Positions 39,001-48,000 of a stretch of DNA of 64,000 nt are shown piece after piece (position 1 is the stretch's first letter; each line of letters starts with the position of its first letter). Origin of the DNA: Fimbriimonadia bacterium (GTDB taxonomy: Bacteria; Armatimonadota; Fimbriimonadia; Fimbriimonadales; JABRVX01). Where the stretch lies: assembly GCA_041483895.1 (NCBI GenBank), contig JBGPGO010000007.1, positions 64,001 through 128,000 of the forward strand, read 5' to 3'. The position numbers were made by a program.

Positions 39001-42000
39001 CCGCGTCACCAAGCGAATCATCACCGGCAGGCCGACGCGCTCCGACAGCCGGAACGCTTCCCGCGTCATGTCGTAGCATTCCTGCTGGCTGCTCGGCTCG
39101 AAGCACGGGATCTTGGCAAACTCGGCATAGAAGCGGGAGTCCTGTTCGTTCTGTGACGAGTGCATCCCTGGGTCGTCGGCGGAGACGAGGACGAGGCTGC
39201 CATTCACGCCGGTGAGGGCGGAGTTGATGAACGGATCGGCGGCCACGTTCAGCCCAACATGCTTCATGGAAACCAGCGCGCGCCTGCCGGCATAGGACAT
39301 GCCGAGCGCCTCTTCGTACGCCACCTTCTCGTTCGCCGACCAGCTGGCCCAGACAGAGGGAGCGACGGCTTGGATGGTCTCGAAGATTTCGGTTGAGGGT
39401 GTACCAGGGTAGGAGAAGGCGCCCGCGATCCCCGCGTCTATCGCGCCCCAGGCTACGGCCTCATCGCCTAAGAAGTACTCTGTCGCCATTGACATGTCTC
39501 CGGTACCGTCCGATTGGTTGCGACTCGGTCAGGAGACCGGTCGCATCCTTCGAGTACCATCCCTTCAAAGTCAGACTGTGAAGGGATGGTTGCGAAGTCT
39601 GACTTTGAAGGGATTAATTATACCTGCGGCCGGATGCCCTCCTTCTTCCAGACTTCCCGAATGAGCTCATACCGGTCCAGCCGCATGCCGGTATAAATGC
39701 AGTTGCTGGTGCTAAAGATATACCCAGGCGCGCTCAGGCCGGTTCGAATGGCATAGCGCGCCGATTCCACGCACTCTTCATCCGTCCCCGTCTGGAGCTT
39801 GCCGCAGTCCACGTTTCCACACAGGCAGACCTGGTTGCCGACGAGCCGCGCTACCTCCGCGATATCGACACCTCCTTGCGGATCGAGGGAATGAAGCGCG
39901 TGCGGGTTGCAGCCGACGAGCCGATCCAAAATCGGCATGATGTTGCCATCGGTGTGCTTGATCACGTAGAAACCGCGGTCCCGATATTCCTGCACGATTC
40001 GGTTGAGATGGGGAGTTATGAACCGGTCGAACCAGGGAAGGGGCAGGAAACTTCCGGAGTTGAAGCAATAGTCGGAGCAGAGCGCAAAACCGTCCAACGC
40101 GCCGTGCTCGCGCAGCCGGTCCGCCCTTCGGATGTGCCGGTCGACGTTTTCCGATGCCTCTCTGTCCACGACGCCGGGAGTTTCATGCATTCGCAGGCTC
40201 ATCTCCTCCATCTCCTCGCCGTTCGGGATGGCGAACGTGGGATCGCCGTGCATCATCAGGAAGTGCCGGCCCTGGTCGAGATCGCAAATCTCATCGAGAA
40301 GCCGCATCTCTTCGTCAATGCCGCCGGGGTTTGGATGCACGAAGATCGCGTCGTGCTCGAACCGCTCGGCGGTCGCCACGAACAGCTCCGCCATGTCCCG
40401 CCGGTGCAAGCGCCGCTCCGTCTCGGTCATCTGGCGCCATTGAGAGTAATCACGATGGGAGGGGTGCACCTTGCCGAATGCCTCCATGGTCAAGAAGAAC
40501 ACCAGCTCGAAGTGGGGCACGAGGCCGGGAGGCGAGCGGCGTTCGAGGGCGGCGACGAACCGTTCGCGCGGCGTCATGTCTGGATCGGCAGAACCCCAAG
40601 GGCCTCGGCGACCGCCCGAATATGGTCCGGAGTCGTCCCGCAGCAACCCCCAAAGATGCGGACCCCTGCCGCGATGGCCGACACCGCGCAGTGGGCCAGT
40701 TCCTCCGGTGGTGCCAGATACACGGTCGAAGCGCCGGTAAATCTCGGTTCCCCCGCATTCGGCTGGAGCAAGACCGGCACGCCCTGAGAGGCCGCAACCA
40801 ATTCGGGCGCCAAGTCAACGTAATCCGACATGCTGAGGTTAGTTCCGCAGTTTGCCCCGACCGCATCGGCGCCCGCTGAAAGGGCGGCGGCAAGCGCATC
40901 GCGGACCGTCGCGCCCATCATCGTTCGGAAGCCTTCGCCGGTTCGCTGGAACGCATAGCTTGCCAGTACCGGCCAGTCCCCGGCCTCCCGGGCGACGCCC
41001 ACTGCCAAGGACATCTCAATCGGGTCTGCCATCGTTTCCACAATCACTCCATCCGCGCCGGCTTCTTGAAATGCCTCAATCTGCACGCGGGTCGCCGTGA
41101 GAAACTCATCCTCCGTGGTCTCTCCGTATGGTTCCAAGAACCCGCCAAAGGGGCCGATGTCGCCCAACACCCAACCGTCGTCTCCGACGGCCCGGCGGGC
41201 AATTTGGACGGCCGCCGCGCTCAGCTCGCCACAGCGGTCGGCAAGGCTATGCCGTTCCAATGCCAGGGCGCTGCCGCCGAAAGTATTCGCCGAAACGACC
41301 CGCGATCCGGCCTCCGCGTACGAGCGATGGACATCTTCGACCGCTTCCTGATGGTCGATATTCCAGAGCTGCGCGCATGTGGCGGCGGTAAGTCCGGCGT
41401 GGAGGAGCATGCTTCCCATCGCGCCGTCCATCAGAAGCACTCCTTCCGCGAATTGCTGATCGAGCCAGGCCTGCCCTGAGCTTGTCGAACGGGTCATGCC
41501 GTCGCCTCACCCGCTACCATCCCTTCACAGTCAGACTGTGTAGGGATGGTAGCGGGTGGTCCGAGGTGCCAGACCTTGCCCATCGGCTTGAGGTTGATTC
41601 CATGACCCCAACGCTTGCGGGCAAGGCGGAGATAGTAAAGATAGCTGTCAAGCGGGACGTCGGGCGGGACGCGGTGGTCGCAAAACGGTATGTATCCGCC
41701 TTCCTCGACGAGCGGGGCCAGGCGGTCGATCTCCTCTCGAATGCCACGGCGGCTTCCCGCTAAGATGTGCTTGTCGAAACCGCCCATCATGAGAAGGTCC
41801 TTGCCATATTCCTTTCTGTACCGCAGAGGATCTGCCCCCCAAGTGCCGATCTCGACCGGAAACATGCAGTTCACCCCGACGCCCATCCATAGCGGGATCA
41901 GGTTCTCGATGTTGCCGTCGCAGTCCAGCCATATGATGTCCACGCCGTGTTTGTGCAGCAGGTCCGTGATTCTCCGATAGCGCGGCATCAGGAATTGACG

Positions 42001-45000: not shown

Positions 45001-48000
45001 TCGCGATAAGTACGGGGAGGATAACGCGGATTATCTTATGCAGATGGAGCAGAATTGGTTCACCACCTACGACCGGGCAACGTATGTGGACATGGGTGTC
45101 GGGGCGACGGAAGATGACATCCGTTTCACAAAAGGGTGCGCAGAGTGGTTGAAATGGAACTTCGATCGCCAGCACGGCACGCCGGATCTTTTGAAAGCGC
45201 TGCTGACGGGCCAATGGGATGAGGAGCGCTTCCTCGTGTTGGAACCAGGCCAGACCTTCTCGATGACGGCGGACGAGCGCATCATCGACATCGTAGACGA
45301 GCGACTCGGTCGGGAGACCGGTCGCATCACGGAGCGGGAGAGCGACGAGCGATTCGGTCAGGAGACCGGTCGCATCGACATCGCGCGGGACCCCAGTGCG
45401 GATCACGATTGAGGATGCGACCGGTGGGGATGCGACCGGTTTCCCGACCGAGTCGCTCGTTATCGGTCCGGACAAACTGGGACTGCGGCTGACCCGCATC
45501 CTTCGGGGCGAGGGATTGCCGCTCAACACCCGGTGCGGGGAAAAGGATATGTGCGCCGGCTGCACGATCGAGCTGGTGCGCGGGTCTTTGGTCCATGTGG
45601 AGACGGGGGAGGTCGCGCTGCCGGGCGAAATCCGCGCCTGCCAATATATGGTGGGATCGGACGCTGAAGTCGTGTTGCGAATTCCGCCTCGGGCGTTGCT
45701 TGCCTACGCGCCGCAAGTGGTGGCCGACTATCGAATCAACGTGCCCTACGCGCGGGATCCCCTTGCCGATTCGGGGCTGGGAGTGGCGGTCGATGTTGGA
45801 ACGACGACGGTGGTGGTCCAGCTTGTCGATCTGCTCACCGGAGATACTGTGGGGAGGGCGGCGGGTTTCAATAAACAGATGCACTTTGGCGATGACGTGC
45901 TGACTCGGATCAACCTCTGCTCCACGGATGTCGCCATGTTGGCGGAACTTCAACGGGCCATCGTCGCGGAGACCCTGCGACCGCTCTTGGATGAGGCCCT
46001 CGCCGGGGCAGAACGGCAGAGGGACGAAGTGTCTTGCATTACGGTTGCCGGCAATACGACGATGCTGCATTTGCTCGTTGGCGAGGACCCAAGTCCGATG
46101 GGGATCGCTCCGTTCACGCCGAGGTTCTTGGATCGAGGTCCGTTTCCGGCCGGCGCGATCGGGTTGGAACCGGGCGACGCGAACGTCCATCTGCTGCCTT
46201 CCATCGCCGCCTACATCGGCGCGGACCTGACTGCCGGGCTGTTGGCGTCCGGATTGGCGTATGAGGAGGGACCGAGCCTGCTTGTGGACGTGGGGACCAA
46301 CGGCGAGATTCTTTTGATGCACGGCGGGGAGATATCCGGCTGCGCGACGGCCGCGGGACCGGCGTTTGAAGGGTCTCGGCTGACCTGCGGCCTGCGGGCG
46401 GGCGAGGGCGCGATTTCGCACTTGTCCCTCGAAGCCGATCCGTTCGCGGTGCGCTACGAGGTGATTGGCGACGGTGGCGGCCGGCCGACGGGACTATGCG
46501 GATCGGCGTACATCGATTTCCTTGCGGAGGGCCGACGCGTGGGTCTTCTCGACGAGATCGGGAGGTTTTCTTCCGCCTTGGGGTGCGACTCGGTCGGGAG
46601 ACCGGTCGCATCGAACGACGAGCGACTCGGTCAGGAGACCGGTCGCATCAATGGCATCAAGGAGACCGGTCGCATCAAGAGTGGGAGATGTTTCAAAGTG
46701 GCCAAAGGCCAGGGCGCCCGGGCGATCGTCGTCTCTGAGGCGGATGTGGCTTCCTTGCTGCAGGCCAAAGCGGCAATTGCGGCTGGGATATTGACCCTGT
46801 TGGCCCGGCACAAATTGGACTCGGCTGACGTCAAAACGCTCTATCTGGCGGGCGGCTTTGGCATGCACCTGGACATCGGAAACGCCATCGCATGCGGTCT
46901 GCTTCCGGGCTTTAGCGTCGAACAGGTGCAGCTGGTCGGCAATGCCTCGCTGGCCGGGGCCACCCTGGCGTTGCTCGACAAGAACCTGCTGGCGGAGATG
47001 AAGACGCTGCGAGAGAAGGTCGAAGTGGTAGAGCTCAACCTCGATCCATCCTTCGAGGACCGCTACATCAGCCAACTGTCATTGCCGTAGCGCTCTCGGA
47101 CGTTGTGGCTCGGGCTCCGGATAGGTCGTATAGGACGTATAGGACGTATGGGTCCTATCGGCAAGCATTGCGAGCCCGGTCAGGAGACCCCGGAAGAACT
47201 TGCGACTCGGTCAGGAGACCGGCCGCATCCAGTGGAAGTTCCGACCCCCTTCACAGTGCGACTGTGAAGGGATAAAGTACTTGCGACTCGGTCAGGAGAC
47301 CGGTCGCATCCAGTGCTAGACGCCTGCGACGACCTCCATCCGGTTAGCTAATTGGCTTTTCGATACTTGATCAGCACCGATCCGGGCGATTTGTCGCTGT
47401 CCACGCGCAGGGTCGCAAGCTCCGCTCCGGTCAGCATCAGCTTCTTCTTTGCGTCAACAAACGTCACTTCATACTTTGCTTTCCGATCGAGACCGTGCAA
47501 GGCCACCTGAACTGTCGTGTATTGGCTCTTTGGACGCCGGAACAGCATCGCGAAGCCTTGGCCAAGATCCGGCCGATCGAATTGCCAACCACACCATTGG
47601 CTTTCATCCAAATTGACCGGCAGCAGCGGGTAGTAATCGCCGAGCCAAAGCGGACGCAGGTCCTTGACTTCCTCGGTGGCTCGTTTCGCCGCGTCGAACG
47701 CATAGTCGCCCTGCCAGATGTTCCCTGGGAGCACAACGGCGGTCGTCGCGACGCTTCGAAACGCATAGGGATCATAACTCCATGCTCCGGCGGAATGGAG
47801 CGGCATATAAAGGCTTAGACCCGCAGTCTGGCACTGATCCCAAGCGGACGAGACGGGAGGCGCGCACGTGGTGTCGCTGCGCCAAAGCGGATAACTGCGG
47901 CTAATCGTTTCAATGTCGATGCGGCGGCCACCGCTCGCGCAATTGTCGATCGTCAATCCGGGCTTTCTCGCGCGCAGCTCATCCCACATCGTGTAGAGCC

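Follow-up and report, generated by a model that had tools for sequence, protein, structure and literature searches.

A seven-gene corrinoid cluster in a Fimbriimonadia bacterium and its putative role in passing methyl groups from methanol and other O-linked methyl compounds to homocysteine

The window analysed here, a stretch of 64,000 nucleotides from contig C7 of a Fimbriimonadia bacterium, contains a cluster of seven genes, and all seven ORFs were found in the place and with the Pfam families that an earlier note had given. Five of them lie on the minus strand, abutting or with 4-nt overlaps. They encode URO-D-fold protein A (39618..40577, 319 aa, assigned by Pfam), whose predicted start is an ATG overlapping the upstream stop; a stand-alone homocysteine-binding zinc module of the MetH module 1 type (40574..41497, 307 aa, S-methyl_trans), predicted to perform the methyl acceptor step; URO-D-fold protein B (41494..42714, 406 aa, Pfam URO-D), the most constant of the cluster's genes; URO-D-fold protein C (42716..43795, 359 aa, Pfam URO-D), a predicted donor:corrinoid methyltransferase; and a corrinoid (B12) methyl-carrier protein (43802..44428, 208 aa) with B12-binding_2 and B12-binding domains. 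Divergent from these is a plus-strand pair, consisting of a DUF1638 gene (44492..45412, start set at the first ATG, conserved part from about 44600) and a gene for a RACo/RamA-type ATP-dependent corrinoid reductive activase (45396..47090, 564 aa, RACo match). The next gene past RACo, on the minus strand, encodes a GH36-type alpha-galactosidase with an NPCBM module (47348..50032), which is linked to the cluster by association only. All 30 bins of positions 38500-51000 were covered by four sediment DNA runs, and the listed pieces of near-identical contigs mostly showed 0-2 differences, with all listed indels in one repeat. In-frame repeat insertions occur in URO-D B (near its start) and RACo, and the C-terminal tail of the DUF1638 protein consists of repeat copies. 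No SAM or cobalamin riboswitch matched Rfam at gathering score in six sources from this genome and seven loci of relatives, and a scan of the loci for promoters and terminators remained at or below chance level.

The corrinoid protein is the sole stand-alone one found in the genome, and its DxHxxG motif is invariant across 22 homologues. RACo is present as a single copy with visible N-terminal ferredoxin-like cysteines, and DUF1638 has been described as a partner of RamA-like activases (Price et al.). A match to CobS was not found in this genome, and import of the cofactor would therefore be required.

The homocysteine module matched T. maritima MetH with an E-value of 7e-45 and retained its zinc and homocysteine motifs, namely GDIGP, ET, GxNC, PNAG, VY and GGCCG. 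Among the 228 genomes over which the order-wide counts were taken, the module was found in 19 of the 23 genomes with the corrinoid protein versus 4 of the 205 without it (p 3e-20, although kin are not independent), and at 11 of the 22 order loci it lay in the same locus as the corrinoid gene. Four corrinoid-positive genomes showed no stand-alone homocysteine module, and in two genomes (G131 and G132) the module was present but had no gene of the cluster in its vicinity. In a search that was not steered by the cluster, corrinoid-system genes were located near 12 of 16 stand-alone modules versus 1 of 64 MetH/YitJ loci, and in a FastTree phylogeny the stand-alone modules fell on a branch separate from the domains of MetH and YitJ (support ≥0.9). 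The module would have the same type of function as MtgE; its score of 192 bits against a cut-off of 338 for the Bmt family PRK07534, a model that we equate with MtgE/Bmt, does not support membership of the same subfamily. The genome, with a completeness of 95%, showed no stand-alone pterin protein, its pterin domains being those of FolP and MetH only, and FTHFS was without a match in this genome and in both genomes of its family. Together with the motifs and the co-occurrence, this supports the earlier proposal of homocysteine as the local methyl acceptor. The cluster is not the organism's only methionine synthase, which is ruled out by a full MetH, a YitJ and an MmuM-like protein. In 5/5 relatives tested, a C-terminal half of MetH of their own was likewise found, and in the genome studied here a MetY-type homocysteine synthase scored above its cut-off. 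An outlet to methanethiol through methionine gamma-lyase was rejected, as none of four candidates passed the cut-off for that enzyme.

The genome contains exactly seven URO-D matches. As had been claimed, none of these is HemE (best TIGR01464 score 24.9 bits versus a cut-off of 303). The label 'MT2' that they had been given does not hold, since the His-x-Cys...Cys triad of MtaA is kept in 0/7 and the best TIGR01463 score is 54.8 versus 235, which rules out MtaA/MT2 identity. At the alignment columns of the MtaA zinc site, URO-D C has His-x-Asp...His, URO-D B has Asp-x-Asp...His, and URO-D A has His-x-Asp...Asn with a Cys one column further. These UroD-superfamily proteins have a predicted metal site rich in carboxylates, with ligands as read from the alignment. 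In O-methyltransferases the cysteines of the thiol methylases are replaced, as described by Kountz and Balskus (PMC10418091). Because none of the proteins keeps the thiol-methylase His-Cys-Cys site, we read them as putative O-demethylating donor modules. URO-D B is present at 20 of the 22 order loci, in one case as a fragment and in one as a distant case, and has relatives in 212 of the 401 genomes of the phylum; at many loci of the phylum its gene lies directly beside that of the homocysteine module or of MtaB. Its structure model was similar to UroD (Z 22.4, rmsd 4.0, 311 aligned) and MtaA (Z 19.6, rmsd 4.4, 308 aligned). ESM Atlas matches were solely URO-D or unnamed clusters, and no solved structure of OdmB, VdmB, MtvB or MtoB was present among the fold or sequence matches.

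A second set of genes on contig C2 was confirmed as described earlier: MtaB (448 aa), a 709-aa ORF, GH2, two URO-D proteins (D and E), DUF2961/GH172 and Melibiase+NPCBM. MtaB is a full-length PF12176 homologue (E 4e-82) that retains the residues aligned to the zinc site of 2I2X, which we assume to have the same roles; its score on the methanogen equivalog is 371 versus a cut-off of 720. Our search found MtaB in 12/228 genomes of the order, rather than in 8 of 227 as previously counted. The earlier worry that MtaB lacks an adjacent corrinoid protein is largely answered by the relatives, since MtaB adjoins a corrinoid gene in 10 of the 11 other MtaB genomes; in this genome it is still on a separate contig, and no remnant of a corrinoid gene was found upstream of the C2 mtaB. 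Orthologues of URO-D D and E lie inside the cluster at 10 and 9 of the 22 loci, respectively. Because relatives in the order hold MtaB and both C2 URO-D families in the cluster, the C7 cluster and the C2 set are most likely one split system, in which the C2 genes would pair with the C7 corrinoid protein. The MtaB of this genome is most similar to that of its own family (66%), while the nearest counterparts of the C7 cluster are in genomes that yielded no MtaB; the pairing of MtaB with C7 may therefore be secondary.

Glycosidases flank both halves of the system, yet are rare in the genome (0/108 sampled ORFs). A GH36 protein adjoins each half, namely Melibiase+NPCBM on C2 and the GH36+NPCBM protein that follows RACo. 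The 709-aa ORF (g00620), previously regarded as an orphan, is real and is not an orphan, as it is a GH138 homologue of BPa0997 (E 2e-64). It has a Glu aligned to E361 of BPa0997, the residue named in the PDB title, and also keeps the second catalytic Glu, aligned to E294, which we take to be the other catalytic glutamate. No glycosidase family is conserved and the partners vary between genomes: the GH36 gene after RACo is not conserved at the loci of relatives, and GH138 was found in 1/228 genomes (E 1e-30), a distant relative of it lying next to the cluster in L116. The glycosidase count in relatives was 13 of 144 versus 4 of 93, an enrichment that is not significant (p 0.20); glycosidases were also found near 3 of 16 stand-alone homocysteine modules of other phyla, a count without a matched MetH/YitJ control. 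A sugar transporter or kinase was seen at neither locus of this genome. A dedicated pectin or RG-II pathway was rejected: GH138 is real but was found in only one of the 228 genomes, and pectin methylesterase and GH28 had no match in the genome. From the earlier reading of B12-dependent O-demethylation, methyl transfer to homocysteine is retained, while O-methyl sugars as substrates, proposed from the neighbouring genes, are unproven. We regard O-methyl sugars or cyclitols as the leading guess for the URO-D donor class, at somewhat below even odds. Slightly more tentatively, at least one of URO-D A-E may demethylate methylated sugars or cyclitols released by the glycosidases, in a corrinoid-dependent reaction with the methyl group passed directly to homocysteine. 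No published report of corrinoid-dependent sugar demethylation or of an MtaB-to-homocysteine route was found in a literature search with little coverage of subscription journals.

Based on these results, we propose that the genes form a modular, corrinoid-based system for scavenging methyl groups, in which homocysteine is the local sink and methionine the product; we assign this a probability of about 0.6. The gene set probably serves to remove methyl groups from methanol and from further O-linked methyl compounds and to make methionine with them. Each donor module would hold its donor at a metal site and pass the methyl group to the corrinoid protein in its Co(I) state, with MtaB as the methanol module and URO-D A, B and C in the window and D and E on C2 as modules for other O-methyl compounds. 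The stand-alone zinc module would hand the methyl group to homocysteine to form methionine without folate, and RACo and DUF1638 would re-reduce oxidised cobalt, the route operating alongside the ordinary MetH. We infer each of these reactions, and donors with O- rather than S- or N-methyl groups, from the gene content, motifs, fold and co-occurrence observed. Against this explanation, a system that has as many as eight donor modules would face only a small demand for methionine, and the homocysteine+pterin half of MetH in relatives could pass the methyl group to folate in trans.

The same donor modules may instead have tetrahydrofolate as the main sink, in trans via the pterin domain of MetH. 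As in the MtgBCDE hub, the methyl groups would then enter the C1 pool of folate or be oxidised, and only a side branch would lead to methionine. In the main family, FTHFS was enriched with the cluster (17/19 cluster-positive versus 59/156 cluster-negative genomes), and the homocysteine+pterin half of MetH exists as a free protein in the cluster-positive relatives with FTHFS, its gene lying next to cluster genes in G085. Elsewhere, two loci (L189 and L024) carry a pterin module beside the homocysteine module, and R. pomeroyi on betaine induces the pterin module and not MtgE. We nevertheless consider this sink unlikely for the genome studied here, in which MetH is a single fused chain and which, like both genomes of its family, lacks an FTHFS match; a pterin module was found at 0/22 order loci, and the 59 genomes carry FTHFS without the cluster.

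An aryl methyl ether O-demethylase of the OdmB/VdmB/MtvB type, acting on lignin monomers, would fit the same motifs, as the MT1s known from such systems belong to the UroD superfamily and have zinc sites rich in oxygen ligands; the glycosidases would then be neighbours by chance or through a shared island. The sediment habitat and the non-significant glycosidase enrichment among relatives agree with such an enzyme, but known systems have a folate or methanopterin acceptor, and by our reading no family for aromatic-ring catabolism was among the Pfam names of two sets of neighbour representatives, numbering 108 and 140, while sugar-catabolic families recurred in the latter. The 140 were scanned out of 213 cluster representatives of the 306 unannotated neighbours of URO-D B, leaving out the 73 most distant singletons. 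We consider an aryl O-demethylase rather improbable. We give marginally less credence to the idea that some URO-D proteins are not donor modules. URO-D B might then be a further acceptor enzyme, acting on sulfide or some other nucleophile, or it might accompany the cluster as an enzyme that handles sugar acids and not methyl groups. The wide distribution of URO-D B, its about equal fit to UroD and MtaA, and the many loci that show no corrinoid gene amid sugar dehydrogenases, kinases and aldolases would be in line with this. However, URO-D B has none of the cysteines that would be expected as ligands if it activated a thiol or sulfide, its corrinoid-less loci are mostly short contigs, and many loci of the phylum place it next to the homocysteine module or to MtaB.

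The proposed methyl-scavenging system would be relevant beyond this genome. The breakdown of sugars from plants, algae and fungi is blocked where these carry methyl ethers. It is plausible that methylated sugars are among the substrates, which would answer an open question. If so, the cluster would represent an oxygen-free sugar demethylation that also acts as a methionine synthase independent of folate; it would be widespread in Armatimonadota and extend to other phyla. It offers five conserved, uncharacterised enzyme families together with the carrier, activase and acceptor that match them. Should sugars not be involved, a route from methanol to methionine without folate, in bacteria other than acetogens and methanogens, would still alter the reading of mtaB and corrinoid genes in environmental genomes.

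Demethylation of 6-O-methyl-galactose is performed by a P450, which we take to be the enzyme named CYP236A. If the sugar reading is true, the system studied here shares with this P450 demethylation (PMC6292453) the removal of a sugar methyl ether, but the P450 is oxygen-dependent, releases formaldehyde and is unrelated in its proteins. Type 1 mlp clusters (PMC10418091) likewise combine several UroD-superfamily proteins with a corrinoid protein as well as a Ram/RACE activase and have no folate methylase. Their Mlps are close to MtaA/MtbA, have His-Cys-Cys and act on methyl-selenide or sulfur, whereas the URO-D proteins described here score at most 63 bits on MtaA-type models and lack the triad. 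A full-length MtaB homologue, adjoined by a corrinoid gene in relatives, is shared with MtaABC (PDB 2I2X for MtaBC, 4AY7 for MtaA); in contrast, this genome has no MtaA-type His-Cys-Cys acceptor and its MtaB is on another contig. With the three-component aryl O-demethylases (OdmABCD/VdmB of Acetobacterium, MtvABC of Moorella, those of Desulfitobacterium, and MtoABCD of Methermicoccus) the system has in common a UroD-superfamily MT1, a corrinoid protein, a RACo-type activase and oxygen-type metal ligands. It differs in having a homocysteine module in place of a folate or methanopterin MT2, and its host, in which FTHFS had no match, possesses a haem-copper oxidase subunit I. The Ruegeria pomeroyi MtgBCDE hub and the methionine synthase that is split into three parts in Phaeobacter inhibens (PMC12478193; bioRxiv 10.1101/192971) share with our system a stand-alone corrinoid protein, a stand-alone homocysteine module (MtgE), a RamA-like activase and DUF1638, as well as the loading of a common corrinoid protein by substrate-specific donor modules, which is predicted here. 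The hub uses the MttB-family MtgB as its donor module, whereas the donors here would be MtaB and several URO-D families, and no MttB-family (PF06253) module was found within the two loci of this genome. The pterin module MtgD is lacking in both cluster and genome, and a complete MetH coexists. Our best reading is that the system represents a variant of the roseobacter MtgBCDE hub.

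The seven-gene corrinoid methyltransferase cluster that an earlier note had placed on contig C7 of the Fimbriimonadia genome was borne out by both the ORF listing and Pfam. Positions given without a contig or locus name count along the window, C7:64001–128000. On the minus strand, the corrinoid protein gene (43802–44428, Pfam) is followed by URO-D C, URO-D B, a stand-alone S-methyl_trans protein of the MetH module 1 type (the homocysteine module, 307 aa, 40574–41497) and URO-D A, which ends at 39618; in the ORF listing, these five genes abut or share four-base overlaps. DUF1638 and the corrinoid reductive activase RACo (Pfam) are encoded divergently on the plus strand. 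The next gene after the cluster, not mentioned earlier, encodes a GH36+NPCBM protein (47348–50032). Four sediment DNA runs cover the locus. The second set, on contig C2, has the claimed composition of MtaB, URO-D D and E and glycosidases, except that g00620, described as an orphan, is a GH138 homologue (BPa0997, E 2e-64) with both catalytic glutamates of BPa0997 aligned. GH138 acts on rhamnogalacturonan II.

A palindromic repeat of ~30 bases, the 16-base core of which is matched 175 times in the genome (≤2 mismatches), occurs at 37132–37195, 42665, 45313–45361, 45429 and 46597–46661, and in intergenic copies. It lies in frame within URO-D B, DUF1638, RACo and an oxidoreductase/acyl-CoA synthetase fusion, where the added residues are missing from relatives, and resembles an intragenic REP element. 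The fusion joins an indolepyruvate-type oxidoreductase beta subunit to an ADP-forming acyl-CoA synthetase and is encoded with the alpha subunit at 34796–39495 on the minus strand, as are the cluster genes upstream of it; the 123 bases between contain a repeat and a hairpin. These genes are not conserved beside the cluster in relatives.

We infer each reaction of the scheme that we consider most likely. A donor-O-CH3 would react with the Co(I)-corrinoid protein through MtaB or a URO-D module to give methyl-Co(III), the methyl group would pass from the corrinoid to homocysteine on the zinc module, and Co(I) would be restored by RACo with DUF1638. The homocysteine module aligns to T. maritima MetH (E 7e-45) and retains the zinc and homocysteine motifs. 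Stand-alone modules (E 5e-58 or better) occurred in 19 corrinoid-positive genomes as against 4 of the 205 others, 23 genomes in all, although kin are not independent. An all-genome search with this module as query, not steered by the cluster, retrieved 16 stand-alone modules, 12 of which had corrinoid-system genes nearby; the same applied to one of 64 MetH/YitJ loci, itself a split MetH. A FastTree built on 139 domains placed the stand-alone modules, 65 in number and mostly sampled via cluster genes, in a group separate from MetH and YitJ.

The genome (95% complete) encodes four S-methyl_trans domains, namely a full MetH with reactivation domain, YitJ, an MmuM-like protein and the cluster module. 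The stand-alone corrinoid protein, RACo, DUF1638 and MtaB are each present in a single copy. Since relatives retain their own MetH halves, the cluster is an extra route beside MetH. The main-family relatives checked (L256, L264, L265) have MetH as two separate halves, one with the homocysteine and pterin domains and the other with the B12 and reactivation domains. Against homocysteine as the only sink, FTHFS was matched in 17 of 19 cluster-positive versus 59 of 156 cluster-negative main-family genomes, these relatives have a free homocysteine+pterin MetH half, and loci L189 and L024 additionally encode a pterin module; three relatives gave a weak extra pterin match. In the genome under study, pterin-binding domains were limited to FolP and MetH, FTHFS, CobS, pectin methylesterase and GH28 had zero matches, and a MetY-type homocysteine synthase exceeded its cut-off. 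Its haem-copper oxidase subunit I, pyruvate- and indolepyruvate-type oxidoreductase genes and membrane hydrogenase-like set suggest a facultative organism. A weak cobalamin riboswitch match (L286, C24:2156–2269, minus strand; 27 bits, below the gathering score of 31.5) lies upstream of genes whose secreted products have PEP-CTERM-like tails, a possible B12 uptake locus. Elsewhere, the module type is shared with other donors: an acidobacterial locus (L052:5800–10894) encodes an amino-acid permease, MttB, a corrinoid protein and the module. In a Lentisphaeria genome (L010:2720–10564), it adjoins CO dehydrogenase/acetyl-CoA synthase genes, and the Wood-Ljungdahl corrinoid protein may there feed methionine synthesis.

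None of the seven URO-D proteins was identified as HemE or MtaA/CmuA by NCBIfam. The URO-D B model (pLDDT 90) matched UroD and MtaA at Z 19.6–22.4, with no closer match. In the MtaA zinc columns, set by the alignment to MtaA and by an MtaA-like protein from L129, URO-D A has His-x-Asp...Asn, B Asp-x-Asp...His, C and D His-x-Asp...His, E His-x-Cys...Asn and G His-x-Cys...Asp/His, while F keeps the last Cys alone. His-Cys-Cys marks S-methyltransferases, and the cysteines are replaced in O-methyltransferases, according to Kountz and Balskus (PMC10418091); by this rule, the column readings make the URO-D proteins more likely O-demethylating first-step enzymes than MT2. MtaB retains the 2I2X zinc-site residues and is the sole donor module with a defensible substrate, methanol. 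The gene for URO-D F (L003:8128–9315; C2:86125–87312), without a close relative among the fetched loci, lies between two antiporter-type subunits of an NADH dehydrogenase-like operon. Among the unannotated neighbours of URO-D B, the most frequent belong to a divergent URO-D-like family (L164:6795–7892 and 14 related ORFs) with no Pfam match at 1e-6, a distant member of which follows mtaB in G225 and G226. In Bacteroidota and some Fimbriimonadales (L013, L016, L020, L023; L127, L129, L150, L152), the genes for corrinoid protein and homocysteine module flank one for an MtaA-like protein that lacks the His but keeps the Cys and is fused to thioredoxin domains; CobW accompanies them.

The C7 and C2 loci most likely form one split system. 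The corrinoid protein is present in 23 of 228 genomes of the order. Of the 22 relatives' loci, seven of them short contigs, 20 encode URO-D B (one copy is a fragment and one is distant) and 11 the homocysteine module. RACo with DUF1638 occurs in 10 loci, as does an MtaB gene immediately beside that of the corrinoid protein; an orthologue of URO-D D is likewise found in 10 and one of URO-D E in nine. MtaB was found in 12 of 228 genomes; in the 11 besides the one studied here, its gene neighbours that of the corrinoid protein 10 times and that of the homocysteine module once. The MtaB studied here shares 66% identity with its own family's MtaB and ~50% with the others, whereas the nearest relatives of C7 and of URO-D D and E are genomes where MtaB was not found; the genome may therefore combine parts of two origins.

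Corrinoid-dependent demethylation of sugars is a tentative reading, to which we give somewhat less than an even chance. In its favour, the C2 block has four genes outside the core, every one of which encodes a glycosidase, two of the genome's three GH36-like genes flank the two halves, and a sample of 108 ORFs taken across 12 arbitrary stretches of the genome contained no catabolic glycosidase (E 1e-8). Pooled with relatives, glycosidases made up 14/153 versus 4/201 controls (p 0.003, or 0.018 once BNR-repeat proteins are counted in controls; scan thresholds differ and genomes are unmatched). Against it, relatives alone gave 13/144 versus 4/93 (p 0.20), no glycosidase family is conserved, and housekeeping genes surround many of the clusters. 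Within the order, GH138 was confined to this genome, and neither of its two loci showed a sugar kinase or a transporter. Where stand-alone modules occur in other phyla, only three of 16 loci have glycosidases, an uncontrolled count. Again in favour, in 106 wider loci, some from the same strain, neighbours of URO-D B included Gfo/Idh/MocA dehydrogenases (8 ORFs), FGGY kinases (4), GH127 (3), UxuA (2), pectate and oligogalacturonate lyases, arabinose isomerase, KDPG aldolase, GH2, 5, 13, 31 and 51 and apiosidase; no aromatic-ring family was recognised among them. A Calditrichaceae locus (L015:1535–12741) encodes on one strand GH8, GH115, GH43, corrinoid protein, homocysteine module, reactivation domain, URO-D and an MFS transporter. 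GH115 frees 4-O-methyl-glucuronate, and this locus is the cleanest candidate for its demethylation; its URO-D is only 24% identical to URO-D E.

The literature searched, mostly as listings, gave no report of corrinoid-dependent sugar demethylation or methanol-to-homocysteine transfer, and passages of PMC8630106, PMC13759103, PMC10895765 and PMC6292453 do not describe this system. Anaerobic galactose demethylation is termed unexplained in PMC12316285, and B. thetaiotaomicron BT0340-0343 appear in the passage found solely as annotated corrinoid proteins. The split methionine synthase of Phaeobacter needs a RamA-like protein and DUF1638, by mutant fitness (Price et al., bioRxiv 10.1101/192971), and the MtgBCDE hub couples betaine demethylation to methionine synthesis (Mausz et al., PMC12478193). 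Price et al. (2021) describe folate-independent synthases that are MetE-related and have no folate-binding domains; the homocysteine module is not one of these. Type 1 MGCs are set apart from the cluster by the zinc triad. In how it would work, the cluster resembles both the MtgBCDE hub and aryl O-demethylases, but, having no pterin module, it belongs to neither.
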